A stretch of DNA of 64,000 nt from Terriglobia bacterium (GCA_965218055.1 CBDCKA010000002.1:931644-995643); one strand, 5' to 3'; shown: positions 20,119 to 39,649, numbered from the stretch's first letter. A program made the numbers and translations. Notes: a model not told the origin generated them from the sequence alone.

Positions 20119-21465
20119 TTACGGCAAAGTCTCCTCCCAGCCAGGAGGAAGTAACTTTACAATGTCGCTGTAGATCACAAAGCCCGCGATCAGCACCAGG
20201 AACACGAACCCCACCTGCACCATCCGCTCCTTCACCGCCAGGCTGAGGTCGCGGCGCATCACGCCTTCAATGGCCAGCAGCAGGATGACTCCCCCGTCCA
20301 GGATCGGAATCGGGAACAGGTTCAAGATCCCCAGATTGAGGCTGATGGCCGCCATCAGGTTGATGAGTTGGGGGAACCCTCGCCGGGCCGCTTCCCCCGA
20401 AAGCCGCGCAATGCCAATAGGACCCTCCAAAGTGCGCGGCGACATTTTGCGCTCCAGCATCTTTCCCAGTAAGTCAAAGATCAGCAGCGCGAACTTCTTG
20501 TTTGCGGTGACGGACTCGCTCAGCGCAGCGGGAAAGGAAAGTCGGCGCTCAATGACGTCGTTCTTCAGCTCGATGCCGATGCGCCACATTTGTTTGCCGC
20601 CCGGGACTGGGCCGAACACCGCCGCCACCTCGACCGGCAGGGTTTGCCCCTGCCTTTGGATCGTCAGTTCCAGCGGCTGCCCCTCGCTCTCCTGCACCAA
20701 TTCCGGCAGGCGCGGCCAGAACGTCAATGGCTCGCCGTTGACAGATGCCACCCGATCCCCGGGAAAAAGTCCCGCCTTTTCAGCTGGATAGCCAGGCTCA
20801 ATGCGTTTGACAATGGCTGGCAGGCGGGGACCCCACCCGGCGATGCCGACGCGGTGGCGCGGGTGGACCTCGGGAGTAATCGTGGTCCTGAATAGCTCTG
20901 CTTCGCGACGGGCGACGACCTCCAGCGGCTGGTCGGGACTGGTGATCGCCTGGATTTCGGCTGCCTCCCAGGTCGGGTTCTCCAGCTCACCGAGGCGAAC
21001 GATCAGGTCTCCCGGTCGAAGGCCCGCTTGCTCGGCAGCAGAATCCTTCTCCACATGACCAATTTCGGCCGGCCGCTCCTGGTAGGCAGGCTTTTCGTAC
21101 TTGACCATGTACAGGCCGGTCAGCAGCACGATGGCCAGCACGACGTTCATCGCCGGACCCATCAGGGCGATGATGAAGCGCTGCCACCGGGGCTTGGCCA
21201 GGAACTCGCCGGGGTCGCCGGTGCGTGGCTCGCCGGGGTTCTCCCCGGCCATCTTGACGTATCCGCCAAGCGGTAACATGCTGACCCGATAGTCGGTGTC
21301 GCCGCGCCGCCAACCCCACAGGCGCTTGCCGAATCCAATGGAAAACACGTCCACCCGTACCCCAAACCACTTGGCAGCCACGAAATGGCCCCATTCGTGG
21401 ATTAGGATCATCACGCCCAAGACCACCACGACGGCGACAATGTTAGTGAGGATGATGTAAGACAT
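20119..21465 (-). CDS. rseP: RIP metalloprotease RseP
   Basis: HEWGH, FSIGFG, PLGGYVKM, two PDZ-like segments, NLFPIPILDGG; follows dxr. Confidence 0.95.
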   Translation of the reverse strand: MSYIILTNIVAVVVVLGVMILIHEWGHFVAAKWFGVRVDVFSIGFGKRLWGWRRGDTDYRVSMLPLGGYVKMAGENPGEPRTGDPGEFLAKPRWQRFIIALMGPAMNVVLAIVLLTGLYMVKYEKPAYQERPAEIGHVEKDSAAEQAGLRPGDLIVRLGELENPTWEAAEIQAITSPDQPLEVVARREAELFRTTITPEVHPRHRVGIAGWGPRLPAIVKRIEPGYPAEKAGLFPGDRVASVNGEPLTFWPRLPELVQESEGQPLELTIQRQGQTLPVEVAAVFGPVPGGKQMWRIGIELKNDVIERRLSFPAALSESVTANKKFALLIFDLLGKMLERKMSPRTLEGPIGIARLSGEAARRGFPQLINLMAAISLNLGILNLFPIPILDGGVILLLAIEGVMRRDLSLAVKERMVQVGFVFLVLIAGFVIYSDIVKLLPPGWEETLP

Positions 21466-22644
21466 TTACCTGTTGCTCCGTTGCCGGGTGGTTTGGCGCG
21501 CCACCCGCCGCGCTTCCCGGTCGCAGTCCAGAATCTGGTCCAGCGTAGTTGCCGGACGGGGAGCCACCTTCCCCAGGGTTTCTTCGATCACCTCCGGCAT
21601 GGCCAGGAAAGGAATCTGACCGGCCAGGAAGGCCTCCACCGCCACTTCGTCGGCGGCGTTGAGCACGCAGGTAGCGGTTCCGCCGGCGGCCAGAGCTTGG
21701 TTGGCCAGATCCAGGCACCGAAACCGCTGGCGGTCCGGCAGCTGGAATTCCAGCTTCCCCAACGCCTCGGGCCCCAGGTGGTGATGATTGGTAGCTACCC
21801 GCTCCGGGTAGGTGAGGACGTATTGGATGGGGATCCGCATGTCGGTCGGGGAAAGCTGGGCCAGGATCGAGCCGTCCACGAACTCCACCAGGGAGTGCAC
21901 AATCGATTGGGGATGGATGAACACCTCCACCTGGTCCGGCCGGAAGCCGAACAGCCAGTGTGCTTCGATCACCTCAAAGCCTTTGTTCATCAATGTAGCC
22001 GAATCTATGGTGATGCGGTCTCCCATGCGCCAGGTGGGGTGGCGCAATGCCTGTTCGGCCGTGACTCCCTGCAATTCGGTTTCGGCCATGTCACGGAACG
22101 GTCCACCGGAAGCAGTCAGAATCAACCTGCGCACCTCTTCGCGCCGGCCTCCTCGCAAGCACTGGTGCAGCCCGTTATGCTCGCTATCGACCGGCAGAAT
22201 CTCCACGCCGGAGCGCGCGGCGACGGCGGTCATCAGTTCCCCGGCAGCCACCAGCACCTCCTTGTTGGCCAGCGCAACCCGCTTGCCCAGGCGGACGGCT
22301 TCGTAGGTCGCCGGCAGGCCCGCCACTCCCACGGTGGCCGAAACCACCAGATCCGCTTCCGGGTCCGAAGCCACCGTAATCATGCCTTCCGACCCGCTCA
22401 ACAGCTCCGGTAGCGGCACCCCCATCTGTGTAAGACGGCTGCGGAGCGCGTCCCGATTCGCTCCTTCTTGGATAGACACCAGCTTGGGGCGGAACCGGGC
22501 GATCTGTTCGGCCAGCAATTCCAGGTTTCGACCGGCGGTCAGCCCCTGGACGCGAAACCGCCCGGGGAAGCAATCGACGACTTCCAGAGTATTCCGGCCA
22601 ATGGAGCCGGTGCTGCCGAGAATGGCCAGATCCCTTGGTTTCAT
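21466..22644 (-). CDS. dxr: 1-deoxy-D-xylulose 5-phosphate reductoisomerase
   Basis: ILGSTGSIG, ALANKE, PVDSEH, LTASGGPF, HPTW.MG..ITIDSATLMNKGFE, NAADEVAV; ATG overlaps the cdsA stop. Confidence 0.96.
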   Translation of the reverse strand: MKPRDLAILGSTGSIGRNTLEVVDCFPGRFRVQGLTAGRNLELLAEQIARFRPKLVSIQEGANRDALRSRLTQMGVPLPELLSGSEGMITVASDPEADLVVSATVGVAGLPATYEAVRLGKRVALANKEVLVAAGELMTAVAARSGVEILPVDSEHNGLHQCLRGGRREEVRRLILTASGGPFRDMAETELQGVTAEQALRHPTWRMGDRITIDSATLMNKGFEVIEAHWLFGFRPDQVEVFIHPQSIVHSLVEFVDGSILAQLSPTDMRIPIQYVLTYPERVATNHHHLGPEALGKLEFQLPDRQRFRCLDLANQALAAGGTATCVLNAADEVAVEAFLAGQIPFLAMPEVIEETLGKVAPRPATTLDQILDCDREARRVARQTTRQRSNR

Positions 22645-23522
22645 TGCAGTGCCAAAAGCAAACGGGGGCTGCGCAGCGAAAGAATGTACCACAGGGTGGG
22701 CACAGCAAACAGCAGCGCGTCCACGCGATCCAGCAGTCCGCCGTGTCCGGGCAGGATGCTGGAAGAGTCCTTCACGCCGGCGCTGCGCTTGAGTCCCGAC
22801 TCGACCAGGTCTCCAACTTGACCGGCTACGTTGACCAGCAGGGCGGTGGCCGCGCTCCAGGTGTAGGAAACGCTGGCCAGGGAATGGGATGTGGTGATCC
22901 CGGCCTCGGCGATCCGCGCTATGAGGACCGGGTAGAGGATGCCAAACCCCACCCCGGCGGCCAGCGAGGCCAGGGCGCCTTCCCAGGTTTTGCCCGGGCT
23001 GATTTGTGGCGCCATCCGATGGCGCCCCGCCACGCGCCCTGCAAAATAGGCGGCCGTTTCGTTGACCCAGGTCAGCAGCAGCACGTAGAGCACCCACTGG
23101 GGACCATCCGGAAGCCGTCGCAAATCGGCCAGCATCGCCATGGGCAACCCGATGTAGAGGATGCCGAGGACAGTGGCCGCGGCTCCAGGCAGAACCTTGT
23201 CCAAAGAGCGCGGCGGCCGCAGAACCAGCGCCAGCGCCAGCATCACCAGCAGGGGAACGACGGTCCCCGCCCCCGGCGGCCAGACCACCAGAGCTACTAC
23301 GGCGACAAACGACAAGGCCCGCAGCGGCGCCTGTCCCGCCTTTCCCGCCAGGTCCAGATACTCACGCAACGTGAGCAGAGCGACCAGGACCACCACCACT
23401 TCGAACAGCACTCGCGGCGCTCCCACCACCAATGCCAGAATGATGGGAATTAGGACAGCGGCCGTGAGCACCCGGTTCCGGGTACTGCTGGGAGCCTGGC
23501 TGAGAACTGGTGCTTTGGCCAT
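22641..23522 (-). CDS. cdsA: Phosphatidate cytidylyltransferase
   Basis: AYFAGR, ISPGKTWEG, GDLVESGLKRSAGVKDS...PGHGGLLDRVD. Confidence 0.95.
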   Translation of the reverse strand: MAKAPVLSQAPSSTRNRVLTAAVLIPIILALVVGAPRVLFEVVVVLVALLTLREYLDLAGKAGQAPLRALSFVAVVALVVWPPGAGTVVPLLVMLALALVLRPPRSLDKVLPGAAATVLGILYIGLPMAMLADLRRLPDGPQWVLYVLLLTWVNETAAYFAGRVAGRHRMAPQISPGKTWEGALASLAAGVGFGILYPVLIARIAEAGITTSHSLASVSYTWSAATALLVNVAGQVGDLVESGLKRSAGVKDSSSILPGHGGLLDRVDALLFAVPTLWYILSLRSPRLLLALQ

Positions 23523-23578
23523 GGATTGTCGCTAGACGGGTTGCCGCTGGAAAGATGAGTGAATTCGGCCTGCCGCGA

Positions 23579-24412
<834 letters not shown>

Positions 24413-24537: not shown

Positions 24538-27500
24538 TTACTGAACGGCGATGGTGGCGGTGTTGCTTTGGAAGCCGCCCTGGGTGAGCACGACCGGCAC
24601 GATGTCGCCCGGTGTGATACCCGCAGGCACTTGGGCGTTGACCTGGTAGACGCCCACGAAGCGCGGCGCCAGCCCCGCAAAGCTTACCGTCGCCGGCTGG
24701 CCGCCGATCGTCACCATGACCGGCGTTGTCACCGTGGCCAGCGGACCGGCCGGCCCAGGGTCGCCCGAAGGCACCGCGGGCTCGGTAGCCCCCAGTCCTG
24801 TGCAGAAGATCGAGATGAAGCCGCCGATTTCGGCCGGCTCGCTGGGCACGTTGGGCGTCTCCGGCATCGCCAGGCGGTTGGTGTTGGCAATCAGGATCGC
24901 GCCCTGGTCGCCGAACGGCGGCCCTAGCGTGAAGATTCCGGGACGATTTGCGGCGGTCTGAAGCGGCTCAGGTGAGCTGAGCACCCCATTGGCCTCCACC
25001 AGCACCTGCAGCTGCCGGTCCGCTTCCAGCTCGAACGGCACCTGCGCGTTCACCTGCCCTGGGCCGGCGAAGAACAGCGGCGCTTCCTGGCCGCCGATCA
25101 GCACCCGCACCAGGCCAAGGGAGCGCGGTAACGGCAGTTCGGACGCGAGGTTGTTGCCCGCCGCCAGATTCTGCCCAAACAGCGAAACGATGCTGCCTGG
25201 GGCTAGGGGCCCGGGTGTAAAGCCGGCGCCCAGAACCACGCCTCCCTGGTTCAGGATGGCCGCCTGCGGATTCGGGTTCGGGACCACCTGAGCTGTGGCA
25301 GTGACCTCTCCCTCCAGGCCGCTGGACAAGCCCCGCGCCGTCACCACCACCTGCGAACTGGCCTGGTTGGGGCGCCAGGTCCCTACATATTGGCCATTCT
25401 TCAAGTCGGTCAGCGTCAGCGTAGGATCGCCGCTGGAGAACGACAGCACCACGGAGCCGCCCACCGCCGCGTTACCACAGTCGTCGCGCGCGTTCACCAA
25501 CACCACGGTGGGGAAGCCGACCTCCGAGCTGAAGTTGGCGAACAGGCTGGTGAACTGCAAAACCAGCTCCGTGGCAGTGCACTCCTCACTGCCCTGCGCC
25601 GGCCGGACAAAGCCGTCGCTCAGGGCGGCGGCGGATGCCGCCGCGCCTGGCGGCAGAACCAGGAACAGCAACCGCACCGGATGCAGTTCTCCGTCATTCC
25701 GCGTCAGTACGGTCAGCCCGGCCCGGTACACATCGGCCGTCAGGTCTCCCAGCTCCGGCTGCACCACGATCCGTCCAGGGGTGTCGCGAGTGGCCCTACC
25801 GACGTCCGGTGCGCGCTTCACCCATGGTGCGTCGATGGGCACGCTGATGAACTCCACCAGCTCCGCTTCGGTGGTGGCCACCGTTACGTTCTGTGAGCCG
25901 GGCGAGGAGCTGCCCTCTGCGGCCACGAAGATCATCCCGGTGGGTCGCACCACGTTGCCTAACCGCGTACCTGGCGGCAGCACTTGCAAATCCACCTTCA
26001 CGACTTGCGGCGAGTTGTTGGCCCCGGCCGATCTAACCTCGACCAAACCCACGTAGAAGCCAGCCGCTAGCCCCGCGGGATCCACCGAGACGGTCACCAG
26101 AGGGATCTCGCTGGCCCCGGCATTGCTGCTGCCGGCCGCCTGAGAAACACGCAGCCAGCTTGCAGTGGTCTCGGCCGTCCAGTCCAGGCTGCCGCTGCCG
26201 ACGTTCAGCACGCCGAAGGTCTGCGGCGGCTCAGACCCGCCAGCTTCCACAGCTCGGAATGGTAAGCCGGTCTCGCTGAGCAACAGCACCCCATCGGGCG
26301 CGGTAACAAGCAAGCTCACCGACACGGTGACGCTCTGGTTGGTGTCGGCGCTGCCCACGGTGATGGAGCCTGAATGCGAACCGGCCGCCAACCCTGCCGG
26401 GTTCACGTTGATTTGCAGGCTGACCGGCGTGCCGGCCGACACGCTGCCCGAAGTCGCTGAAACGGCCAGCCAATTGCCACTGACCGTGCTAGCCTCAGCC
26501 ATCCAGCCTATCGTGCCGCTACCGGTATTCTCGATGCGCAGCGACTGCGCCGGTGGCGCCGGCGCTCCGGCTACCACCTGGAAACTCAAGTCCGACGGTC
26601 CGACCGACAAGCTGGGCGGCTGCGCTTCCGTGACTGTGAAGGTGACCAAGATGGTCGCCAGCGAGGGCATCGCCGCCGGAGCAGAAATCTCGATGCTAGC
26701 TTGGTGGGTCGCCTCAGACAGGTTCGTCGCATCGGCGGAGACCGAAACCGTGGCCGGCATCTGCCCGGATGAGGACGACACACTCAGCCAGCTGCTGCCG
26801 GCAACCACCGTGGCCTGCCAGGGCAGACCGGCGACGCTGCTGCTCAGCGTCAGTTGTTCGGGAGCACCTGCAGTGGAGCCCGCAGTGGCCGAAAAGTCCA
26901 GGCTGGCGGGAGAGACGGAGAAGGAAGGCGCAGCGGCGAATAGAACCTTGCGGATGCGCTCGTTGAACTGGTCGGCGATGTAGAGGTTACCGGCCGCATC
27001 CATCGCCACACCGAGGGGGTTATTCAGCCTAGCGCTGGTGGCCGGACCCCCATCGCTGGAAAAGCCTCCAGCGTCAAAGCCCGTGGGTCCGCTGCCGGCC
27101 ATGGTGGTGATAATCCCGTCGGGGCTGACCTTGCGCACGCGCTGGTTGTACGTGTCAGCGATGTAGAGGTTGCCGGCCGCATCTACAACGACATCTCCGG
27201 GAAAGGCCAATGACGCGCTAGTGGCCGGACCACCATCGCCAGAAAAACCACCACCGTCAATGCCCGCAGCGCCGCTACCGGCCACGGTGGTGATGACCCC
27301 GCCGGTATCAACCTTGCGGATGCGGTGGTTCAACTGGTCGGCGATGTAGAGGTTGCCGGCCGCGTCCACCGCCACACCTGTAGGGCGTGCTAACGAGGCG
27401 TTGACCGCCGGTCCGCCATCCCCCGAAAAGCCCAAATCTCCATTGCCCGCCACGGTCGTGATCGTCCCGTCGAGGCTAACCTTGCGGATTCGGTCGTTAA

Positions 27501-28791
27501 ACGTGTCGGCGATGTAGAGGTTGCCGGCCGCATCTACTGCCACACCTGCAGGTCGATTTAGCGAGGCACTGGTGGCCGGCCCGCCATCGCCAATGTCAGG
27601 AAAGAGAGGAGACCCCCCGCCCGCCACGGCGGTGATAACGCCACCAAGGCTGACCTTGCGGACGCGGTCGTTGAACTGGTCGGCGATGTAAAGGTTACCC
27701 GCCGGATCCACTGCCACACCCGCAGCTTCATTTAGCGAGGCACTGGTGGCCGGCCCGCCATCGCCAATGTCAGGAAAGAGAGGAGACCCCCCGCCCGCCA
27801 CGGTGGTGATAATCCCACCAGGGCTGACCTTGCGGACGCGGTCGTTGAACTGGTCAGCGATGTAGAGGTTACCCGCCGGATCCACTGCCACACCCGCAGG
27901 TTCATTTAGCGAGGCACTGGTGGCCGGCCCACCATCGCCCCGGAATCTGAATCCTCCGTTGCCGGCCATGGTGGTGATAATGCCATCGGGGCTTACCTTG
28001 CGAATGCGGTCGTTACCATGGTCGGCGATGTAAAGGTTACCCGCCGGATCCACTGCCACACCCGCAGGTTCATTTAGCGAGGCACTGGTGGCCGGCCCGC
28101 CATCGCCGGAAAACCCTTCCTGTCCGTCGCCGGCCACCGTGGTGATAATCCCGCTGGGGTTGACCTTGCGGATGCGGTTGTTGAACGTGTCGGCGATGTA
28201 AAGGTTACCAGCGGGATCCATCGCCACACCTTCAGGCATATTTAGCAAGGCACTAGTAGCCAAACTGCCATCACCGGAAAAGCCTCCGGCGTCAAAACCT
28301 GTGGGTCCGCTGCCGGCCACGGTGGTGATGGTCCCATCGGGGCTGACCTTGCGGATGCGGTTATTACCAAAGTCGCCGATGTAGAGGTTGCCAGCCGCAT
28401 CTACTGCCGCACCTGCAGGTTGACTTAGCGAGGCACTGGTGGCCGGCCCGCCATCGCCAGAAAATCCGTGGAATCCGTTTCCCGCCACCACGGTGAGCAC
28501 GCCGGTGGGGGAAATCTTCACCACGAGGTTGTTGTCAGAATCAGCCGCGAGTACATTGCCGTCCAAGTCAACCGCAACGCCCCCGATTCTTCCCAGGGGC
28601 GCATCCGTCGCCGGCAGCGGTCCGGTAGGGAAGATCCACTCGCTGCCGGCCACGGTGGTGATGACGCCCTGGGCGTGGCAGTGAAAAGGGAAAAAGGCAA
28701 AAGGTAAAAGGATTGCCAGGCAGAGAATGGCAAGGGGGTGCTTTGACCTACGGACCAAGCCCGGCAGTCTGTGCCGCAGAATGCGCTTCAT
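24538..28791 (-). CDS. Large secreted NHL-repeat / BACON-Ig-like protein with Solibacter-type C-terminal domain
   Basis: Signal peptide; about 10 repeats of GDGGPATSASLN.P.GVAVD.AGNLYIAD; Ig-like/BACON modules (SWLSVS); C-terminal APGSIVSLFGQNL, PLFFAGPGQVNAQVP, FAGLAP.FVGVYQVN typical of the Acidobacteria-expanded C-terminal domain. Confidence 0.85.
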   Translation of the reverse strand: MKRILRHRLPGLVRRSKHPLAILCLAILLPFAFFPFHCHAQGVITTVAGSEWIFPTGPLPATDAPLGRIGGVAVDLDGNVLAADSDNNLVVKISPTGVLTVVAGNGFHGFSGDGGPATSASLSQPAGAAVDAAGNLYIGDFGNNRIRKVSPDGTITTVAGSGPTGFDAGGFSGDGSLATSALLNMPEGVAMDPAGNLYIADTFNNRIRKVNPSGIITTVAGDGQEGFSGDGGPATSASLNEPAGVAVDPAGNLYIADHGNDRIRKVSPDGIITTMAGNGGFRFRGDGGPATSASLNEPAGVAVDPAGNLYIADQFNDRVRKVSPGGIITTVAGGGSPLFPDIGDGGPATSASLNEAAGVAVDPAGNLYIADQFNDRVRKVSLGGVITAVAGGGSPLFPDIGDGGPATSASLNRPAGVAVDAAGNLYIADTFNDRIRKVSLDGTITTVAGNGDLGFSGDGGPAVNASLARPTGVAVDAAGNLYIADQLNHRIRKVDTGGVITTVAGSGAAGIDGGGFSGDGGPATSASLAFPGDVVVDAAGNLYIADTYNQRVRKVSPDGIITTMAGSGPTGFDAGGFSSDGGPATSARLNNPLGVAMDAAGNLYIADQFNERIRKVLFAAAPSFSVSPASLDFSATAGSTAGAPEQLTLSSSVAGLPWQATVVAGSSWLSVSSSSGQMPATVSVSADATNLSEATHQASIEISAPAAMPSLATILVTFTVTEAQPPSLSVGPSDLSFQVVAGAPAPPAQSLRIENTGSGTIGWMAEASTVSGNWLAVSATSGSVSAGTPVSLQINVNPAGLAAGSHSGSITVGSADTNQSVTVSVSLLVTAPDGVLLLSETGLPFRAVEAGGSEPPQTFGVLNVGSGSLDWTAETTASWLRVSQAAGSSNAGASEIPLVTVSVDPAGLAAGFYVGLVEVRSAGANNSPQVVKVDLQVLPPGTRLGNVVRPTGMIFVAAEGSSSPGSQNVTVATTEAELVEFISVPIDAPWVKRAPDVGRATRDTPGRIVVQPELGDLTADVYRAGLTVLTRNDGELHPVRLLFLVLPPGAAASAAALSDGFVRPAQGSEECTATELVLQFTSLFANFSSEVGFPTVVLVNARDDCGNAAVGGSVVLSFSSGDPTLTLTDLKNGQYVGTWRPNQASSQVVVTARGLSSGLEGEVTATAQVVPNPNPQAAILNQGGVVLGAGFTPGPLAPGSIVSLFGQNLAAGNNLASELPLPRSLGLVRVLIGGQEAPLFFAGPGQVNAQVPFELEADRQLQVLVEANGVLSSPEPLQTAANRPGIFTLGPPFGDQGAILIANTNRLAMPETPNVPSEPAEIGGFISIFCTGLGATEPAVPSGDPGPAGPLATVTTPVMVTIGGQPATVSFAGLAPRFVGVYQVNAQVPAGITPGDIVPVVLTQGGFQSNTATIAVQ
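27500..28200. repeat. Near-identical intragenic tandem repeats (168-174 bp NHL units)
   Basis: TTTAGCGAGGCACTGGTGGCCGGCCC recurs at about 27557, 27731, 27905 and 28073 (spacing 174, 174, 168 bp). Confidence 0.85.
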
Positions 28792-28997
28792 GGCATTGCC
28801 CCTTGCTGCCACGCATTCTAGCACGCGGTCACACGGACGGCTGCCATGTGTCCCACTGGGGGTCCAGCCTCGGCCAGGCGTATGATCCGAAGAGTTGGTT
28901 CAGCGGCAGATTCGCAGATTTCCCACAGCAACCCTGCCAGGGTATCTGCATCGGTGGACCCGCCTCTGGAATTTCGTGTTAATCCGAGCGATTCCCT

Positions 28998-30530
28998 TTA
29001 GATTTCGAAGTGGACGCCGTAGCGGACGGGCGCACCGTTCTCGCGCGGGATGATGCGGACGACGCGGCTCGGTGTCTCGAGTAAATCCGGCATGTCTTCC
29101 TGGTAGTGCAGCGCCACCCAGACCATGCTGTTCAGCTCATAGCTGTGGTCGCTCTCAAAACAGAGGCCGCGGCGTGAGACGTTGATGGGTTCCAAGACCT
29201 CGACCAAGTCCGGGCGGCGAATGCGCGCCCGGGTTCGCACATGGAGGCGGCGCGTGGTTCGCCGGTCATCCCATCTGACATTGCCGGAGAAACCGGCGAC
29301 AAACTGCTGGGTCGTTGTGAGCGACGGCCCGCGGCGCGCACCGGTAGCCGCCACAGGTTCGGCGGCCGCCACCGGTTCGGCAGCTACTGGCGCTTCAGCG
29401 GGCTGCGCCGTTGCCGCAGTTGGCTCGGCAGCCATCACTGGCTCGAGCACTGGCTCGGGCACCGGCTCGGGAGCCGCCACCGGTTCGGCAGCTACTGGCA
29501 CTTCGGCGGGCTGCGCCGTTGCCGCAGGTGGCTCGGCAGCCATCACTGGCTCGGGCACCGGCTCGGCGGCCAACACCGGTTCGGGCACCGGTTCGGCAGC
29601 TACTGGCGCTTCGGCGGGCTGCGCCGTTGCAGGACGTGACGTAGCGGCCGCGCGGGCCACTTCAGCGCGCACGGCAGCGAAGGCAGCCTCGGCCTGTTTG
29701 AGATGGCGGCGCGCCTCGACCAGCTTTTGGTCGGCGCCTTTCTTATCCGCACGCAGCGCTTGCAGGTCGCTGGTGCCAGCTGCGGCGCGCGCGCAAGCGT
29801 CGGCAGCTTCGCGGGTGAGCTTCTTCGCGCGATCGCGCACCAGTACGGCGCGGTCGGCCATCTCCTCCAGTTCGCCGCGGAGGGACTGGGCCGCACGCAA
29901 GGCAACGGCCATCGCTTCCCGCTGCGTCACTTCCAGAGTGCGGGTCTGCTCGGCGACGTGCGCGTCGAGCAGTTGCGTATAGTCGCCAGCGCGCACCACC
30001 GTGCCTTCGGCCTCGACAACGCAGGCGGCCGCTTCGCGGGCCGCCGCTTCGTCCGCCCCCGCACGCGGCGTTTCGCCGGCCGCCCCTTCGATCGTACCCG
30101 CACGCGCCGCTTCGCCAGCCGCCCCTTCGTCCGCGCCCGCACGCGCCGCTTCGGCTCCTGACCCTGTGGCTATCCTGGCGATGGCCGCCCTTCCCATCTC
30201 GTTCTGCTCGCGCGCCTCAGGGGTTTCTTCCGGCAGCGGCGGAGCCGACGCTGTCTCGTTTAGCTCCCAGATGTCCACCGCCGGGTCGGCCGGCGCCAGG
30301 CGGACCTGCCGCGGCGCCGGAGCGCTTTCCACTACGAAATCTGCCTGCCTGCCGTTCTCCAGGTTGTAGATCGTTAGCGTCGTCCCGACCACCACCGGGT
30401 GGCGGAGGAGGATGGTAGCCGCGGCAGGCCCGACAGTCAGCGTGTAGGTATGCTCGCGAAACGCACCCGTGTTCGGGTTCAGGTCAAAGACCGCAATGCG
30501 GATGCGCTGCTCGCGTTCGAGTAGGGCCAT
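28998..30530 (-). CDS. PilZ-domain protein with degenerate N-terminal PilZ-like domain, coiled coil and Ala/Pro/Glu repeats
   Basis: C-terminal DRRTTRR (RxxxR) and NVSRRG (NxSxxG). Start set at MALLERE (30530) because the ORF-track start overlaps the neighbouring gene. Confidence 0.72.
   Translation of the reverse strand: MALLEREQRIRIAVFDLNPNTGAFREHTYTLTVGPAAATILLRHPVVVGTTLTIYNLENGRQADFVVESAPAPRQVRLAPADPAVDIWELNETASAPPLPEETPEAREQNEMGRAAIARIATGSGAEAARAGADEGAAGEAARAGTIEGAAGETPRAGADEAAAREAAACVVEAEGTVVRAGDYTQLLDAHVAEQTRTLEVTQREAMAVALRAAQSLRGELEEMADRAVLVRDRAKKLTREAADACARAAAGTSDLQALRADKKGADQKLVEARRHLKQAEAAFAAVRAEVARAAATSRPATAQPAEAPVAAEPVPEPVLAAEPVPEPVMAAEPPAATAQPAEVPVAAEPVAAPEPVPEPVLEPVMAAEPTAATAQPAEAPVAAEPVAAAEPVAATGARRGPSLTTTQQFVAGFSGNVRWDDRRTTRRLHVRTRARIRRPDLVEVLEPINVSRRGLCFESDHSYELNSMVWVALHYQEDMPDLLETPSRVVRIIPRENGAPVRYGVHFEI
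29341..29640. repeat. Intragenic low-complexity repeats (AAEPV / ATAQPAEAPV)
   Basis: Repeated CCGGTTCGGCAGCTACTGGC / GGGCTGCGCCGTTGC blocks. Confidence 0.8.
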
Positions 30531-30699
30531 GGGAATGGGCTCACAGGGTGAACAGTATAGCACTGGAGAGCGCGGAGGAACCGGAAAGAAAGGATCCACC
30601 GCCGGGCGCGGGAATTCAGGTGCCATCATAGTCCTTCTTTGACGCGGTGGCGATTCCCAGGGCCATGTAGTCGGGCGGCTTCCCTCTGTAGGGACTGGC

Positions 30700-32325
30700 T
30701 TACCTCTTGCGGTTGTGCGGACTTCCTGCAATGGAGCGCTGCTGGTCAATCCAACTCACAACGCTATTAGGCGTGCGGACTTCCCCCCGCAACAACGCGA
30801 GGAGAAGATCGTGGGTCAGCACAGTGTTGAAAGCAGGCTCGTAGGTCATTGCTTCTTTCTGGCCGGCCATTTTGAGCAGAAAGGGAACCCGATGCCCAAT
30901 CCTGTCAGCAAAGGCAGCCTCCTCGCTGGTCGAAGACGGCTGCGAGCTGGACCCCTGCACCCCCTGCACCCCAGTTTTCCACCAATGATCACTCGTGACC
31001 AAAACCGCGGCAGTCTCCCAGGTACCCGTATCTTCCATAGAACGGCGCACTTCGCCCAAACTACGATCCATCAGTTCAAGGTTATCCAGGTAATTGCTGC
31101 CCTCAAACAATGCAAAATCGTCCTTTGTCCGGTCATAGATGCCGGGAGCATGCGGAATAGGCCAGTGCACCAAAATCAGATCAAGATCAGGATCGGTGGC
31201 TGCTTTCTTGGCATCGTGAAGGATGGCGAGATATGCATCCAGGTGCTTCTCTCTCCTCAGGCGTGCTTGCCCTTCGGTCATCATCCTGCGGGTTAAGCCC
31301 AACTCCGCGGCCAATGGAGTCACTTCCATTACATTTTGGATCTGTGCCACCATACAGTCAGGCACCGTCATTCTCCGATCATCCAACGGTCCGACTGTGA
31401 CCTGCCAGGAACAACTCGTCAAGGTGTCAGTAATCATCCTGCAATAGGGAAGATACCAACCCGCGACTGCGGAACGGAAGCCTGCTTCGCGGGCCTTCGA
31501 AAACACGTTGGGCTGAGTGCTCCAACGTACAGCCTCTTCGGTCCCTGCAAAGGTAATCATCAGTTCGTCTGCGTCGAGCGGTTTGGAACTAGAAACCAGT
31601 TGCCCGCTGAGAAGAGCAGGCATGGAGAGCAAAGTCCCGTCCGCAGGGGGATAGGCGTTGCTGGCGTAGATTGCCTGACTGCGTAGGCGATCTATTTCAG
31701 GAAGGTGCACTGTTGGCGGCCGCGCCGAGAAGGCCATCCTCTGATCCATCTCATCGAACACAAGCCACACAACGCGTGTCGCTGGTGTTTTTCCGGCGGG
31801 GGAAGGGGGAGCCAGCGCTTTGTCGCGAAGAGCAACCGTGGAGTCGGCCTTGGTCAAGGACCAGCCCACCTGGAAAAACGTAATCGGAACGAAGGGAAAC
31901 AGCACTAAGGCGATCCCTGCCGCGGCACTGAGGGGCTGACGATCCCACAATATGAGAGCTAGGACAACAACAACGAAAACGACAAAAAGTAAGACCAGAA
32001 AGCCGAGTATTCCGTACAGCGGGGGGAGACCCACGAGCTGAAGCAGAAGCTGAAGCAAGACGCCACAAAAGGCCATAAGTAGCACGAGGAGAAACACGGA
32101 TTGCCCAATTCTGCGGGAAACCACATTCGACGAAGGCCTGGCGAGAGACAACGCAGCCCATGTCAGGGCCGCGAGAAGACATACATTGAGCAGAATGGCC
32201 ACGAGATTGTTCGGGCTGGGGGGGAACTTCGTAAAAAATCGAAGGGAAGGATCGAGCAGGTTTTTCCACACTTCTATGAAGCATAGATTGGCGAGCGACA
32301 GAGCTATGGCCAAGTTCCTAAGCAT
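30700..32325 (-). CDS. Membrane-anchored alkaline-phosphatase-superfamily (sulfatase-like) protein, NoeB-like
   Basis: About 5 N-terminal TM helices, then VWLVFDEMD, GTLLSMPALLSG (Thr nucleophile position), HWPIPHAP and VTSDH metal-ligand motifs. Confidence 0.75.
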   Translation of the reverse strand: MLRNLAIALSLANLCFIEVWKNLLDPSLRFFTKFPPSPNNLVAILLNVCLLAALTWAALSLARPSSNVVSRRIGQSVFLLVLLMAFCGVLLQLLLQLVGLPPLYGILGFLVLLFVVFVVVVLALILWDRQPLSAAAGIALVLFPFVPITFFQVGWSLTKADSTVALRDKALAPPSPAGKTPATRVVWLVFDEMDQRMAFSARPPTVHLPEIDRLRSQAIYASNAYPPADGTLLSMPALLSGQLVSSSKPLDADELMITFAGTEEAVRWSTQPNVFSKAREAGFRSAVAGWYLPYCRMITDTLTSCSWQVTVGPLDDRRMTVPDCMVAQIQNVMEVTPLAAELGLTRRMMTEGQARLRREKHLDAYLAILHDAKKAATDPDLDLILVHWPIPHAPGIYDRTKDDFALFEGSNYLDNLELMDRSLGEVRRSMEDTGTWETAAVLVTSDHWWKTGVQGVQGSSSQPSSTSEEAAFADRIGHRVPFLLKMAGQKEAMTYEPAFNTVLTHDLLLALLRGEVRTPNSVVSWIDQQRSIAGSPHNRKR

Positions 32326-33799
32326 CGGTCGCAGGCTGTTTTTTCTGTAGCAGATAGAGCCAACGGCTGGTTCGACCTAGGCGCTGGCAACGAACAATCT
32401 CGAATCGCCGGCGGCAGACAGCTTCAAAACGAGATGGGGTCAGGTCGGTGAACAGGTGGTCTCGGCCCCGGGTGAGGCGACGAAACATAGGGTCATCCGG
32501 GGCAACGAACTCAATGACCAACAGTTGGGTAGTCAGTTCGGCGGCGAGATCAAGGATTTGCTGCAGAGGGATACGCTCGCTGACAAGCATGTGGTGGACC
32601 ACGGCCAGCATCAACACAGCATCAAAAGCGCCACGGGCACGGTCCAGAAATCCTGGGCACTCGTGGTTACGCCAGCCCAGAGCGGGAGTCGGGTGGGTAA
32701 GGTTCACAACCAATGGCAGAATATCCAGCCTCCGTGTACGAGCCGTTCGCCACAAATGGCCAACCACTACGGGATCGGTGTCAATCGCCACGACGCGGGC
32801 GCCCCTTTGAGCGGCGAGGACGCTAAAGTGACCCGTGTTACACCCTGCGTCCAGAACTTTGTTGGGAGAAAACTCAGCCATCACATTTTCAACGAAAACC
32901 TGCTTCTCCTGAAATTCCGCAGGGGTGTAGCTATGGCAGGAAATCATGTACTCCGACCACGCCGAGCCCTTCTTCGCCGTGGGCGACAAGCGATGGAGAG
33001 TTCGGCGCAACCGCTTCAGTAAGGAGCCCAGAATGAATCTAGCCCTCTCAGGATCAGGCAACGATTTCTTTTGATAGATTGTCGCGTCGTCCGGACTATG
33101 TCTGGCCGCGAGCCATGTCGGGATGGAAACCTGGGTCAGAACCGGCGGGATCAGTTTTCGGAGTGGCCCGCAGAGGCGGTAGACTTCCTCCGGCTCGATG
33201 CCGTCGCGGCGCGTGGTCAACAGCTGATCCAACCCTACACCGAAGTACTTGTTGACCAGCAACGGCAACAGGAAAGTGCGCGAAAATTGTGCGTACGGCA
33301 ACCAAACCGGGTCGCCAGGATCGCGACTTTCAACCGACGTCAGGTCAATGAAGATTGGTTCCGGGCCGCAAAAAAGAACATTGAAAGGGGTAGCGTCCTT
33401 GAGTCCGAACCCTTCGGCCAACAAGGCTTCTGCGAGACTAACAGTAAGGCGCCCGGCGGCCTCCAGCATTTCGGGCGGCCACTCGTAGGGAAAGCTGGCA
33501 AACGGCACCCGTTCATGCTCGACGATCATCCCGGCGCCCATCTCGTCGAACAGGCTGTCAAATTCAGGATTCTTGCGCAGCTTTTCGATTTCGGCGGTAT
33601 CGAGAACGCCTGTATGCACTAATCGACCCGCTTTAGCAAACTCCCGCGCTGTGGTCGAAGCTAGAAAAGCACGGAGGTGCTCTACATCCGGTTTCTTGAT
33701 AACGCGGATGATGCGCCCATCAAGTCTGACTAAGCAGCCTTCAGGGTCACGGAAGGAGATGCCCACAGGGATCGGAGGGGAAACGTCACCATGACTCAT
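32318..33799 (-). CDS. Kinase-like + class I SAM methyltransferase fusion, NoeA-like
   Basis: N-half SFRDPEG, FPYEW, LKDATPFNVLF, IFIDLTS; C-half VLDAGCNTGHFS, VAIDTD, LMLAVVHHM, LVIEFV. Confidence 0.78.
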   Translation of the reverse strand: MSHGDVSPPIPVGISFRDPEGCLVRLDGRIIRVIKKPDVEHLRAFLASTTAREFAKAGRLVHTGVLDTAEIEKLRKNPEFDSLFDEMGAGMIVEHERVPFASFPYEWPPEMLEAAGRLTVSLAEALLAEGFGLKDATPFNVLFCGPEPIFIDLTSVESRDPGDPVWLPYAQFSRTFLLPLLVNKYFGVGLDQLLTTRRDGIEPEEVYRLCGPLRKLIPPVLTQVSIPTWLAARHSPDDATIYQKKSLPDPERARFILGSLLKRLRRTLHRLSPTAKKGSAWSEYMISCHSYTPAEFQEKQVFVENVMAEFSPNKVLDAGCNTGHFSVLAAQRGARVVAIDTDPVVVGHLWRTARTRRLDILPLVVNLTHPTPALGWRNHECPGFLDRARGAFDAVLMLAVVHHMLVSERIPLQQILDLAAELTTQLLVIEFVAPDDPMFRRLTRGRDHLFTDLTPSRFEAVCRRRFEIVRCQRLGRTSRWLYLLQKKQPATDA

Positions 33800-33809
33800 T
33801 CACAATAGC

Positions 33810-34046
33810 CTATTCCTTGTTTTTCTTGGTCTTTCTCCAGAAAAACATCCGCGCGATGAACTTGCGGAAATAGAACAGACCCCCAAAGAAGGCAGCAAGC
33901 AGGGCTTGCAAAAGCAACGCCCCCGACCCCGGGTCGATATAAAAAGCGTAGGCTTCGGTCTCGGTCACGATCAATACAGCCAGACAACCAACTAGCCGAC
34001 CAGGTAGCCGACGCGGAACCGAAGCCGGTCCGGGAGCGATTGACAT
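33810..34046 (-). CDS. Small membrane protein with YIDPGSG motif
   Basis: GGAGG SD; hydrophobic leader ending AYA, then FYIDPGSG, a TM helix and a Lys/Arg-rich tail; ends 10 bp before the methyltransferase gene. Confidence 0.72.
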   Translation of the reverse strand: MSIAPGPASVPRRLPGRLVGCLAVLIVTETEAYAFYIDPGSGALLLQALLAAFFGGLFYFRKFIARMFFWRKTKKNKE

Positions 34047-34266
34047 ACGCTGATTGCCTCCGATGAACTTACCTAACTTAAGCAGGAATTTCCGACCTAG
34101 GCCCTCCGGCTCCGTTATGGTACACGCCTTCTTCTCTGGAACACAAAAAATTCACCCGGGCATTCCAACACCCCGATCCTGCAGCCCGTCTGCCGCCCAT
34201 GCTTCTAGAACCCAATCTCATGAGTGCGCGATAGGACTCGCGTAGCCAAACTGCGTTGTACCTCAT

Positions 34267-34318
34267 GGGCTGAAGCCCCCGTTTTGCGGCCGTCTCGCGG
34301 CACGGCTGAAGCCGTGCC
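34267..34318. repeat. REP-like palindromes
   Basis: Perfect hairpin GGCACGGC-TGAA-GCCGTGCC (34299-34318) and shorter GGGC-TGAA-GCCC (34267-34278) share the same loop. Confidence 0.6.
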
Positions 34319-34977
34319 CTGACACCTGTGTAAGGTTCGGCATTTATTGAGATGGGTTGATGGGTTCTGGTCCGAAAACCGGTACATTCCTGGGCAAAGA
34401 TGTGTTCCCGATCGGAGACGGTCGGGCTCAGAGGTCATAGGCCGTCTTCTACATTCGAATGCAATAGTTCTGGAGGGTAGGTTCACTAATCGGCAACCAT
34501 CGCCATGCGGTACCTGGCGTTAAGTGGCTGTCTTGCAAGGGAGTTCATCAGAGTGCAAGTTTGTCTGCTCTCCAGCTTCCATTTGGCACAACACGTGCTC
34601 TCACCGTTGAGCCAAAAGCAGGGGAAGGTACCGAAATGCACGAAGAAATCGGGAGGGCGCGGGGTTCCCCGCTGACGCTGGGGCTCAGTACCGACCGCCG
34701 CGGCGGGAGTACGGCGTGCCTGTCTGTCGACACCGAGACTGGCGATCTGCCCGACTTTCCGAATTCGAGGCCGAATTCGAGGGAGGACTCTGAGCGAACG
34801 TCGGTGTACAGTATTCTGGGGCGCGCGGCAGCCTCCTGGACTAGAATACTCCTCCGGGGCGTGTGTTCTGTCCTCTTGATGGACGACCAGATATTGCAAG
34901 GCCCGCGGGCGGCAGAAGGAGATCCAGAAGGAGATCAGGTCCAAGCAAATCAGCGAAGCAATCTTCCAGCGCAGACA

Positions 34978-36579
34978 ATGACTCCCGAAGAGAATCAAGA
35001 ACGCGCGCCAGAGTTTCTGCTTCCTACCGAACCGCGCCACCGAGCTCTTTGGGAAGGTACGAAGGTTTTGTGCAGTCGTTCCCAAAGCATAAGGTACCCA
35101 CCGCTCCCGTTGTTTTTCGGTCTGTCCAGGGCAAGAGCCTACAGACCATCTCGCGCGCTTTTTTGTTCTGTTCTGCTCCACTTTTCGCTGCCCTTCTTCT
35201 TCTTGCGCATGCCTTTCCTGTTGCTTTTTCCCACGCTGGCTTCCGTAGAAAATTGCCTTGTTCCACCGGACCGCGAAGTAAAAATTGTCAATATCGCTTC
35301 GTATCTACCGACGCTGCGAGCACCCGGGCCGTCCGGGAGTCCGGGGCGGGGCAATCGACCCGATCGGCCGCCTGCTCGGGGAAGTACCGTTTTCCATCCC
35401 CGGGCAACGATCATCTCGGCTCCACCTGCTCCCGATAATACTCGCCAGACAATCTTGCAACCTGATTCTCCCCCCGAACTGAAAATTCCGGTCGAGCTTC
35501 GCCTGCCCAACATAGTCCTTAAGGCGCCTTCGTCGCTTCCGAAAGCTCCTCTGCCGAATCCCAAGGTCAAAATCCGTGGTCAAAAGGCGCCGGCTCCTCC
35601 TGTTGCACCGGAGCCCGCAGAGTTGCAGCTTGTTCAGACCCCTCCCATTATGCGGCTGCCCACTCTTGAAGTGGCTGCGCCTCCGATGCCTCTGGGAGAG
35701 GAATCCGCCTCACAAAGGGCTTCGAGCGGACCAGCGACGCAGGGTGATCATCCGGAGTTACTCGTGCTGAGTGTCGAGCCTGGGGGCGCGCTTCCAAAGA
35801 TTGCGCTTCCCGCAGGAAACCGGTACGGCGCCTTCTCTATGTCACCCTTTGGTGGTTCTCCAGGCTCGCCGGGGGGAGTCCCTGGAGGGGACCCGCAGGG
35901 TGGAACTGGAGGCAGCGGCAGCGGAGGACAGAGGGGCGGCGGTTTCGGACCCGGCGGAGGGAAGGGAGGCGGCAGCCAGTCGGCGGATGGAGGTTTCGTC
36001 AGTATCAGCGGCAGCGGCGGTGCCCCAGGTGTTTCCGGAATAGAGGGTGTTTCCGGAGCAGAGGGCCTTAGCTCGGCGGCCATTGCTAGCCTGGTCTATC
36101 CCGTGCGACGTGCGCCTGGTCCTCGCCTGCCTAAGATGGTCGTCATGGCTGGTCCTTCCGGGGGCGGTGGGTTGGACGTGTACGGGGTGCTTCGGGGAGG
36201 CCGCGTCTACACGATCTCGCTCCCCATGCCCGGCAAGAACTGGGTTTTGCAGTATTGCCGTCGCAAGAATTCTTCTCCTGGTTCCAATGATGGAGTAGCT
36301 CGCAGGAACAGTACCAGCCTTCGACTCGAGCCCCGCTTGGGCTCGCCTTACGCTGAGGCGCAGTTTGACTTCAGGCGGGTATCTGTTCCCAGGGACAAAG
36401 CAAACCAAATGATTGTCTTGCGTGGAGTGATCCGAAGTGACGGGTCCGTAGGAAACGTGAAGGTCCTGCGAGGATTAGAGACGATCGCAGATCGAGCCGC
36501 GGTAGCCGCCTTCCGCCGCTGGAAATTCAGGCCGGCGACTCGGGCGGGAGTGTCAAGGACTGATTTCTTTAGACACTGA
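34978..36579 (+). CDS. TonB-family energy-transducer-like protein, C-terminus truncated by IS insertion
   Basis: TM anchor (FCSVLLHFSLPFF), Pro-rich then Gly-rich linker, TonB_C pattern VLRGVIRSDGSVGNVKVLRG...AAVAAFRRWKFRPATRAG; the last 9 codons and the stop come from the IS end. Confidence 0.7.
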   Translation: MTPEENQERAPEFLLPTEPRHRALWEGTKVLCSRSQSIRYPPLPLFFGLSRARAYRPSRALFCSVLLHFSLPFFFLRMPFLLLFPTLASVENCLVPPDREVKIVNIASYLPTLRAPGPSGSPGRGNRPDRPPARGSTVFHPRATIISAPPAPDNTRQTILQPDSPPELKIPVELRLPNIVLKAPSSLPKAPLPNPKVKIRGQKAPAPPVAPEPAELQLVQTPPIMRLPTLEVAAPPMPLGEESASQRASSGPATQGDHPELLVLSVEPGGALPKIALPAGNRYGAFSMSPFGGSPGSPGGVPGGDPQGGTGGSGSGGQRGGGFGPGGGKGGGSQSADGGFVSISGSGGAPGVSGIEGVSGAEGLSSAAIASLVYPVRRAPGPRLPKMVVMAGPSGGGGLDVYGVLRGGRVYTISLPMPGKNWVLQYCRRKNSSPGSNDGVARRNSTSLRLEPRLGSPYAEAQFDFRRVSVPRDKANQMIVLRGVIRSDGSVGNVKVLRGLETIADRAAVAAFRRWKFRPATRAGVSRTDFFRH

Positions 36580-36592
36580 TTCTGAGAGTTTT

Positions 36593-37390
36593 TTACGCGA
36601 CTAACGCATACCGTTTGGCGAATACCACAGGCGGCATGTTGAGCGCGGAGTGAATCCGCGTGTTGTTGTAGTCCCACAGGGTGCGGTAGATCTCCGCCAC
36701 TAGCTCCCCCAGTGTTTTGAAGCGGTTCGGATCTCCCAGGTCAACCTTGAATTTGTCGTAGAACGATTCCTGGTATCCGTTCTCCCAAGGGCACCCCGGG
36801 CGGCTCCGTGAAATCACGATGCCGCATCCATCAAGGATTTCAGTGAACGCCATCGCGTCATACTCCCTCCCGTTGTCGGAGTGGAATAGACCCGGGCGCG
36901 GATGATGGAGCAGGGCGTTGGAAAGCGCCTGAATGGTGAGCGCGGCTCCCTTTCTCACCGCAACCTGGATTCCCAGGATCCGGCGGGTGTAGAGATCGAT
37001 CACGGTCGCCACATAGACCTTCTTTCCGTGCTGCACGAACTCGGTGAAGTCCGTTGCCCAGATGTGGTTTGCATATGCGGGCATGAGCGCGAGCAGGAGG
37101 TTGGGATAGGTCCGGGAAACCTTGGATTTTCTCCATTTTCTGCCTCTCCTGCGGTAGGGCTTGATGCCAAACAGACGCATGACCCTCTGCGCCCGCTGGC
37201 GGCAGAGTCCCAGTGCCGTAGCAATTCGCCGGGAGCCGTAGGAGGGATGGATCTGCAGCTCTTCTTCCAGGCGGACCTTGAGGCGCCAGTCCTTCTCCTT
37301 CATTCTTGGGACGTAATACAGGCTCGCGCGGGATATGCCAAGGGCTCGGGCAAGCGCTGATTTGTTTCTTCCTTCGCTCAATTGTTTTTT
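36593..37390 (-). CDS. IS3 transposase OrfB (DDE integrase core), reached by -1 frameshift
   Basis: YGSRRI, WATDFT, VIDLYTRRILG, HSDNGREY, WENGYQESF DDE motifs. Confidence 0.9.
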   Translation of the reverse strand, partial: KKQLSEGRNKSALARALGISRASLYYVPRMKEKDWRLKVRLEEELQIHPSYGSRRIATALGLCRQRAQRVMRLFGIKPYRRRGRKWRKSKVSRTYPNLLLALMPAYANHIWATDFTEFVQHGKKVYVATVIDLYTRRILGIQVAVRKGAALTIQALSNALLHHPRPGLFHSDNGREYDAMAFTEILDGCGIVISRSRPGCPWENGYQESFYDKFKVDLGDPNRFKTLGELVAEIYRTLWDYNNTRIHSALNMPPVVFAKRYALVA

Positions 37391-37638
37391 TGAGTCATGG
37401 AGAGCTTGAGCGTGATCTCGCCCACGAGTTCCAGGAGTTCTCTGTTCTGCTTCTGAAGTCGGGAGAACTCCGCCCAGGACGGGGCACCGGTTGCTCCTTT
37501 TACCATCCAACCATAGATGCTCCCTTCAGAAATACCGTGATCCTTGGCGGCCTGGGCCACCGAGATGCCTTCTTCCTTGACGCGGCGTAGGATATCGGCT
37601 TTTACGTCAGCTGCAATACGATGATGTTTTTTGTTCAT
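37378..37638 (-). CDS. IS3 transposase OrfA (HTH)
   Basis: GISVAQAAKDHGISEGSIYGW HTH, leucine-zipper-like tail, ending in the slippery A AAA AAC. Confidence 0.88.
   Translation of the reverse strand: MNKKHHRIAADVKADILRRVKEEGISVAQAAKDHGISEGSIYGWMVKGATGAPSWAEFSRLQKQNRELLELVGEITLKLSMTQKNN

Positions 37639-37771: not shown

Positions 37772-39649
<1,878 letters not shown>

Follow-up and report, generated by a model that had tools for sequence, protein, structure and literature searches.

The gene at positions 32318..33799 on the minus strand of a 64,000-nucleotide (nt) stretch from a Terriglobia bacterium (GCA_965218055.1 CBDCKA010000002.1:931644-995643; the whole stretch is referred to here as the window) encodes a NoeA-family protein in which a predicted protein-kinase-like domain is very probably fused to a class I S-adenosylmethionine (SAM)-dependent methyltransferase. 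It is the middle gene of a tight three-gene minus-strand unit that encodes a micro-protein, the NoeA-like fusion protein and a NoeB-like membrane enzyme. We propose, with a probability of about one half, that the fusion enzyme makes methyl-phosphate on a membrane-associated acceptor and does so as part of this three-gene module, by analogy with WbdD, the kinase/phosphate methyltransferase that terminates O-antigen chains in Escherichia coli O9a. The genes, domains and residues on which the argument turns are as follows, with positions counted in the window.

32318..33799, minus strand: NoeA-family fusion gene, an open reading frame (ORF) of 493 amino acids (aa).
32990..33775, minus strand: atypical protein-kinase-like domain, residues ~9-270, from the AlphaFold2 model and structure searches.
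33704..33706, minus strand: R32 in strand beta3, candidate substitute for the ATP-binding Lys (K72 of PKA).
33380..33403, minus strand: catalytic-loop motif LKDATPFN (K134, D135, N140), from conservation and alignment with WbdD.
33335..33355, minus strand: IFIDLTS, residues 149-155, with the DFG-equivalent metal-binding Asp D152 and S155, from conservation and alignment with IDFGS of WbdD.
32336..32962, minus strand: class I SAM-dependent methyltransferase domain, residues ~280-488, from Pfam and WbdD profiles.
32831..32857, minus strand: SAM-binding motif I VLDAGCNTG, residues 315-323, from translation and Pfam.
32591..32596, minus strand: H402-H403, counterparts of WbdD H132-H133, from hhalign and HMMER alignments.
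32363..32365, minus strand: R479 in the C-terminal RxLY, counterpart of WbdD R203, from hhalign.
33810..34046, minus strand: micro-ORF of 78 aa, 10 nt upstream of the fusion gene, with a signal-peptide-like start and a membrane helix.
30700..32325, minus strand: NoeB-like membrane enzyme of 541 aa, overlapping the fusion gene by 8 nt, from Pfam and hydropathy.

An original prediction, made from the nucleotide sequence, had proposed that the gene encodes a kinase-fold/methyltransferase fusion with the domain order of WbdD reversed, and retranslation confirms both the ORF and the coordinates of the three motifs from which it started, LKDATPFNVLF (residues 133-143), IFIDLTS and VLDAGCNTG. The kinase half is indeed hidden by a plain methyltransferase annotation: Pfam and NCBIfam recognise only the C-terminal half, and residues 1-260 have no match in either. 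The AlphaFold2 model of the N-domain is confident (predicted local distance difference test, pLDDT, 93.5), and when it was compared with the PDB by Foldseek the top 50 matches were protein kinases only (Csk, TYK2, JAK1, CK2, PknI and others; probability 0.96-1.0, E 4e-5 to 4e-4). VIA-align, run independently of Foldseek against 48,161 representative chains, gave 109 chains with Z of at least 8, and the top 50 of these were all kinases or pseudokinases (Z 8.7-10.3), with 154-200 aligned residues at a root-mean-square deviation of 3.5-4.5 Å and with model residues 8-270 spanned; re-scoring of the Foldseek matches by VIA agrees with a kinase fold. The N-terminal half is thus predicted to take a kinase-like fold, as had been proposed for it, as judged by AlphaFold2, Foldseek and VIA-align together. 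A specific likeness to aminoglycoside or Kdo-type kinases, which the motif spacing had suggested, finds no support in these searches: the top structural matches listed are eukaryotic-type protein kinases and Rio2, with differences in Z that lie within the tie range, and the fusion protein has no APH, Choline_kinase or Kdo Pfam match. WbdD, aminoglycoside kinases and choline kinases are not among the 50 structural matches listed, which is not evidence that they differ.

Within the model, the elements follow the order of the kinase plan (beta1-3, helix, beta4-5, long helix, catalytic loop, beta7-8, Asp). R32 lies within the third strand (residues 29-35), and the D135 and D152 motif residues are at the positions expected for the kinase catalytic loop and metal-binding Asp. 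The spacings of the Asp-Asn-Asp triad are 5 (D135-N140) and 12 (N140-D152), compared with 5 (D351-N356) and 13 (N356-D369) in WbdD. The model predicts for the N-domain a protein-kinase-like fold in which the Asp, Asn and Asp of the triad are in place. The full-length AlphaFold2 model has a pLDDT of 93.5 and a predicted template-modelling score (pTM) of 0.93, the latter suggesting a fixed, rigid packing of the two domains; a structure search with the full-length model returned methyltransferases only and is uninformative for the N-domain.

Conservation was determined in an alignment of 82 homologues that are 36-95% identical. R32, E106, W107, K134, D135, N140, D152 and S155 are invariant (82/82), and in SAM motif I D317 is conserved in 81/82 and G319 in 82/82. 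A pattern of the form D..N..D could by itself arise by chance, but its invariance across the homologues argues that it has not. To gauge how far the N-domain extends, residues 1-270 were compared exhaustively, with HMMER, with 1.84 billion cluster representatives (E no greater than 1e-3), which retrieved 3062 clusters at 50% identity, spread over many phyla and nearly all annotated merely as SAM-dependent methyltransferase. Among the 150 best 50%-identity cluster representatives, 143 carry the pattern [KS]D[AG][TS]xxN...DxxS, and 89 are at least 430 aa long. Most full-length members are 455-520 aa, and the fusion of a kinase-like domain to a methyltransferase is therefore the rule.

These results bear on the simplest alternative, that the protein is an ordinary methyltransferase whose N-domain is a non-catalytic substrate-recognition module with kinase-like motifs that are coincidental. 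It would account for the databases annotating the family only as SAM-dependent methyltransferase, and for sequence-profile similarity to kinases that does not reach significance. However, two independent structure searches give only kinases across the whole domain, and the motif residues not only lie at kinase positions but are invariant in 82/82 homologues; we give this explanation almost no credence. For annotation, we note that the first 270 residues of such 'methyltransferases' form a catalytic-looking kinase fold, and that the gene is best read together with both of its neighbours.

The fusion protein belongs to the family of kinase-like/methyltransferase proteins that includes NoeA and Lani_1194 of Legionella anisa, and it agrees with that family on all four points by which membership was judged. 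BLASTP aligns residues 9-488 with Sinorhizobium meliloti NoeA at 27% identity (E 2e-57), and when plasmids were searched by tblastn, the gene annotated as noeA on S. meliloti pSymA was retrieved. S. meliloti NoeA retains R32, D135, N140, D152, S155, the SAM motif, the HH pair and the C-terminal RxLY, but has Ser at the position of K134, which is invariant in the subfamily of the protein analysed here. The kinase-like/methyltransferase idea is not new: the architecture and neighbours of the family were published in 2022, when Krysinska et al. (2022, PMC9758233) reported that in the Lani_1194 family, NoeA included, a kinase-like domain of a novel kind is joined to a class I methyltransferase. 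According to that study, no ion-pair Glu was found in the family, the equivalents of PKA D166, N171 and D184 are conserved, R38 is the proposed equivalent of PKA K72 in Lani_1194, and a methyltransferase is present in 94% of kinase-domain homologues; its AlphaFold model of the family shows an extensive domain interface, and the family architecture is drawn beside that of WbdD (PMC9758233). Both noeA and noeB were described in 1995 as host-range nodulation genes (Ardourel et al., as cited in PMC9758233).

A short segment related to the fusion protein is also present outside the window, at G000:C2:2779854-2780012 (plus strand), where it is 60% identical to fusion residues 435-488 (E 5e-12). It is contained in a 113-aa open frame and is possibly the remnant of a second NoeA-like gene.

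The C-terminal half is a class I SAM-dependent methyltransferase, as had been read from its motif I, with Pfam Methyltransf_23, Methyltransf_25 and Methyltransf_11 all matching above their cut-offs over residues ~263-421. By sequence, its nearest solved relative, and the best one for the protein as a whole, is the methyltransferase domain of WbdD (phmmer E 1.5e-3), and a profile of the family compared with the PDB finds the WbdD methyltransferase at E 2e-8 and 36 bits, with the next family at 28 bits. A WbdD family set was collected with a 78-residue WbdD stretch as query, 32 proteins were aligned, and the profiles were compared by hhalign. The methyltransferase halves of the fusion family and the WbdD family align over 155 columns with a Prob of 98.6 and E 7.5e-16, pairing H402 with H132, H403 with H133 and R479 with R203 (RPMY in WbdD and RxLY here), and each of the three residues is kept in 80/82 homologues of the fusion protein. 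In WbdD, these positive residues surround the methyl group of SAM, and the H132A, H133A and R203A substitutions abolish phosphate methylation while the kinase step is spared; they lack counterparts in the O8 enzyme and in other sugar-hydroxyl methyltransferases, and are said to confer the use of a phosphate nucleophile (PMC3482155).

Methyltransferases that act on phosphorylated bases are matched as well, with the family profile finding phosphoethanolamine N-methyltransferases (5wp5, E 2e-4) and Foldseek finding the phosphatidylethanolamine N-methyltransferase 8ys9. These matches would fit a head-group pathway in which the N-domain is an ethanolamine- or choline-kinase-like enzyme, the C-domain is a phospho-base N-methyltransferase, and the product is carried in a lipid donor from which the NoeB-like enzyme transfers it onto an envelope target; the NoeB-like partner is indeed built like enzymes that transfer head groups from phospholipids. 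Nonetheless, WbdD is clearly a better match than the phospho-base methyltransferases, and R479 corresponds to the WbdD residue associated with a phosphate nucleophile. The top structural matches listed for the N-domain include no choline, ethanolamine or aminoglycoside kinases, and neither a cytidylyltransferase nor a lipid synthase gene is present in the module. We consider a head-group pathway very unlikely.

The 78-aa micro-protein encoded upstream has an N-terminus ending in A-Y-A, followed by FYIDPGSG, a hydrophobic helix at residues ~42-60 and a basic tail, and it has no Pfam or NCBIfam family. A 71-aa ORF upstream of S. meliloti noeA is of the same design (AHA-YLDPGTGS), and a micro-ORF with the A-x-A / Y-x-DPG[STA]G arrangement lies directly upstream of the NoeA homologue in 9/10 loci from several phyla. 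These conserved micro-proteins are ~65-80 aa long, and they include the one at L019:4763-4978. The 78-aa protein is probably homologous both to the S. meliloti ORF and to Lani_1193, a hypothetical protein of ~65 residues with homologues in 65% of neighbourhoods (PMC9758233). That such a micro-protein is near-universal upstream of NoeA homologues is a new observation.

The presence of a small conserved neighbour raises a further explanation, in which the N-domain is a genuine protein kinase whose target is the micro-protein, or another protein of envelope biogenesis, and the methyltransferase modifies the same protein. The closest folds are those of protein kinases rather than of small-molecule kinases, and the micro-protein, upstream in nine of the ten loci, has an invariant motif that contains Ser, Thr or Tyr. 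However, YxDPG[STA]G follows a signal-peptide-like segment, so it is probably periplasmic and beyond the reach of a cytoplasmic kinase. In addition, the tyrosine-kinase-like fold of WbdD can phosphorylate sugars (PMC3482155), and the methyltransferase resembles a phosphate methyltransferase and not a protein methyltransferase. A protein target for the kinase-like domain is thus highly improbable.

The NoeB-like protein has 4-5 N-terminal hydrophobic segments in a hydropathy scan, followed by a Sulfatase/Phosphodiest domain of the alkaline-phosphatase superfamily (Pfam Sulfatase 8e-13, Phosphodiest 6e-7), in which the nucleophile is probably the Thr of ADGTLLSMP. This is the architecture of EptA/MCR-1, LtaS/LtaP and OpgB, although sequence comparison does not place the protein significantly in any of these families; the best PDB sequence match is a weak one, to the lipoteichoic acid primase LtaP. 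The NoeB-like protein and S. meliloti NoeB do not match significantly in pairwise BLASTP (E 0.057), and the link between them is drawn from the shared Pfam fold, architecture and gene position, S. meliloti NoeB also matching Pfam Sulfatase. A Sulfatase-fold gene is located directly downstream of the NoeA homologue in 4/8 related genomic loci, as well as in S. meliloti. In the published neighbourhoods, homologues of Lani_1195/NoeB are present in 38%, and HHpred links Lani_1195 to EptA (PMC9758233).

From the observed fold match, the conserved residues, the relationship of the protein to both NoeA and the methyltransferase of WbdD, and the linkage of the three genes, we can outline how the module might work. 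No membrane segment is predicted in a hydropathy scan of all 493 residues of the fusion protein, which would be a cytoplasmic, bifunctional enzyme. Its kinase-like domain, with R32 serving in place of the ATP-binding Lys, would move a phosphate from ATP to a hydroxyl of the acceptor, and this acceptor would be membrane-associated, being a glycoconjugate or else the head group of a lipid. The methyltransferase domain would then methylate the new phosphate to give a methyl-phosphate diester, as WbdD does. The single-pass micro-protein may tether the soluble enzyme at the membrane or partner it there, and the NoeB-like enzyme, of EptA/LtaS type, may act on phospho-groups at the outer face of the membrane.

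A more ambitious version of this scheme is that the trio constitutes a widespread and horizontally mobile two-compartment pathway, in which methyl-phosphate is placed in the cytoplasm on a membrane carrier or envelope precursor, is tethered or presented by the micro-protein, and is transferred or trimmed outside by the EptA/LtaS-like enzyme. We regard this version as quite unlikely, but if it were true it would represent a new kind of envelope decoration, and would at last give the nodulation host-range genes noeA and noeB a biochemical function.

Several observations weigh against the formation of methyl-phosphate, and the first group of these concerns the N-domain. Its template-modelling (TM) scores to kinases are modest (0.26-0.43 in Foldseek), Arg (R32) replaces the canonical beta3 Lys, and no conserved alphaC Glu is seen in the helix region 36-56 of the 82-homologue alignment. 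An FRDPxG loop replaces the glycine-rich GxGxxG loop, the glycine of DFG is absent, and kinase-fold enzymes that lack canonical residues sometimes catalyse other reactions. Of the residues expected of a kinase, D135, N140 and D152 are kept, and the canonical ATP-binding ones (glycine-rich loop, beta3 Lys and alphaC Glu) are missing, as is the DFG Gly.

The same substitutions, together with the presence of pseudokinases such as IRAK3 and NFR5 among the best structural matches, are what would be anticipated if the kinase fold were used for a different chemistry, such as AMPylation or another nucleotide-dependent transfer, or for binding as a pseudokinase-like clamp, with the methyltransferase targeting O or N directly. 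Two features speak for phosphorylation instead. The invariant D135, N140 and D152 argue for metal-nucleotide catalysis and not for a dead domain, and the H-H-R signature of the methyltransferase is most simply explained by a substrate that carries a phosphate made by the adjoining domain. Use of the fold for other chemistry, or for binding alone, is unlikely in our judgement.

A second group of reservations arises from the comparison with WbdD. The kinase halves show no significant homology by hhalign (E 0.38, Prob 0.15); in this non-significant alignment KD stands opposite DD, and the Asn and the second Asp each fall on their WbdD counterparts, and in HMMER LKDATPFN lines up with HDDVRPWN of WbdD at -2 bits, which is not significant alone. 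As the methyltransferase halves are homologous and the kinase halves are not detectably related, the fusion protein is not a domain-permuted WbdD; as far as sequence profiles can tell, it is an independent fusion in which a methyltransferase of WbdD type is combined with another, minimal domain of kinase fold. On the methyltransferase side, NodS or RebM also carry two His or two Tyr at the position of the HH pair (PMC3482155), so that only R479 discriminates phosphate use, and the pairing of R479 with R203 comes from a single alignment. The equivalent of Y16, a fourth residue that WbdD needs for methyltransferase activity, was not placed, as the local alignment starts at WbdD residue 52 and a forced global hhalign is unreliable N-terminally; Y284, present in 81/82 homologues, is a candidate counterpart.

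The remaining points against methyl-phosphate formation are biological. No biochemical test of any family member was found in the literature searched, and methyl phosphate is not known as a component of S. meliloti Nod factors. No glycosyltransferase or wzm/wzt gene lies within ~15 kb of the fusion gene, the rest of the genome not having been searched for wzm/wzt, and WbdD-type O-antigen capping for ABC export is consequently without support from gene context. Taking these comparisons together, the proposed analogy with WbdD holds for the methyltransferase, which has WbdD as its nearest solved relative and keeps H-H-R. The domain order is reversed relative to WbdD, as had been noted, with the kinase-like domain first and the methyltransferase second. 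The analogy does not extend to the kinase halves, which are not detectably related by profile, and the suggestion of glycan capping finds no support, there being neither an O-antigen/ABC-transporter context near the gene nor a coiled coil in the protein.

The composition of the region differs from that of its surroundings. The G+C content of the module (~30.7-34.05 kb; low over the stretch ~30700..35000) is 0.55-0.57, compared with 0.62-0.69 in the flanks, and an IS3-family transposase gene (36593..37510, minus strand; NF033516, E 1e-55) lies 2.5 kb away. Homologues of the fusion protein in same-genus genomes (n=2) are only 35% identical, whereas one from a same-order genome is 50% identical. 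The low G+C content, the nearby transposase and this pattern of identities suggest that the three-gene module was acquired horizontally. A scan for promoters and terminators between 28.5 and 34.7 kb gave nothing beyond the level of shuffled sequences.

Within ~15 kb, the neighbours of the module encode a PilZ-domain protein, an NHL-repeat protein, UppS, Dxr, RseP, a TonB-like protein, the IS3 transposase and an M2 peptidase. The gene adjoining the NoeB-like gene is the following.

28998..30749, minus strand: PilZ-domain protein of 583 aa, with a C-terminal PilZ (c-di-GMP-binding) domain.

Its ~490 N-terminal residues have no family match, and at its longest the ORF shares 50 nt with the end of the NoeB-like gene. 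We considered it as a fourth member of the module and rejected it, as no homologue is found beside NoeA in 9 related loci and its G+C content is higher (0.65-0.69).

Further downstream on the same strand, a giant protein of 1428 aa (24538..28824, minus strand) with NHL/teneurin-type beta-propeller repeats, BACON domains and a C-terminal IPT/TIG domain is encoded between the PilZ gene and uppS. It is followed by uppS (undecaprenyl diphosphate synthase), dxr and an rseP-type M50 protease gene (20119..24412, minus strand). The longest ORF for dxr carries a 150-residue N-terminal extension, and the closeness of uppS to the module is probably coincidental. On the other side, a 672-aa Pro/Gly-rich protein in which only a C-terminal TonB domain is recognised is encoded divergently from the module (34561..36579, plus strand), and its long low-complexity N-terminal part may be over-extended. 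Beyond the transposase gene is a full-length bacterial homologue of angiotensin-converting enzyme (37772..39649, minus strand; Peptidase_M2 E 6e-229, profile positions 3-580 of 581).

Among described systems, the closest are those of NoeA, encoded in the nodL-noeA-noeB operon, and of Lani_1194, which have the same two-domain layout, the Arg in beta3 and the D/N/D residues. Their loci also have the same neighbours, with a small membrane protein upstream and the alkaline-phosphatase-fold NoeB/Lani_1195 downstream. They differ in their hosts, a rhizobium and Legionella as opposed to the acidobacterial-type host here, and in having an acetyltransferase (NodL/OafA), which does not adjoin the fusion gene in the window. 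Another fusion of a kinase-like domain with a methyltransferase, Lcin_0519 of Legionella cincinnatiensis, is predicted to phosphorylate and methylate an envelope glycan (PMC9758233). From its description it forms a separate family, with a kinase-methyltransferase-coiled coil arrangement recalling WbdD and a location in wzm/wzt O-antigen export loci (PMC9758233).

WbdD itself (PDB 4azs, 4azw and 4uw0) likewise combines a kinase fold and a class I methyltransferase in one polypeptide, but in the order methyltransferase, kinase and coiled coil. The C-terminal coiled coil and membrane-binding region of WbdD has no counterpart in the fusion protein, the model of which ends at the methyltransferase. 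K252 of WbdD is replaced by Arg, and neither E274 nor the DFG Gly has a counterpart in the fusion family. The partners differ too, being WbdA and Wzt for WbdD and, for the fusion protein, the micro-protein and an EptA/LtaS-like enzyme. What is new here is the link, at the level of sequence profiles, between the methyltransferase half of the NoeA family and the phosphate methyltransferase of WbdD, together with the conserved H-H-R residues. As these residues are shared with the only structurally characterised phosphate methyltransferase, they lead to a specific prediction, namely that the product of the fusion enzyme is a methyl-phosphate.

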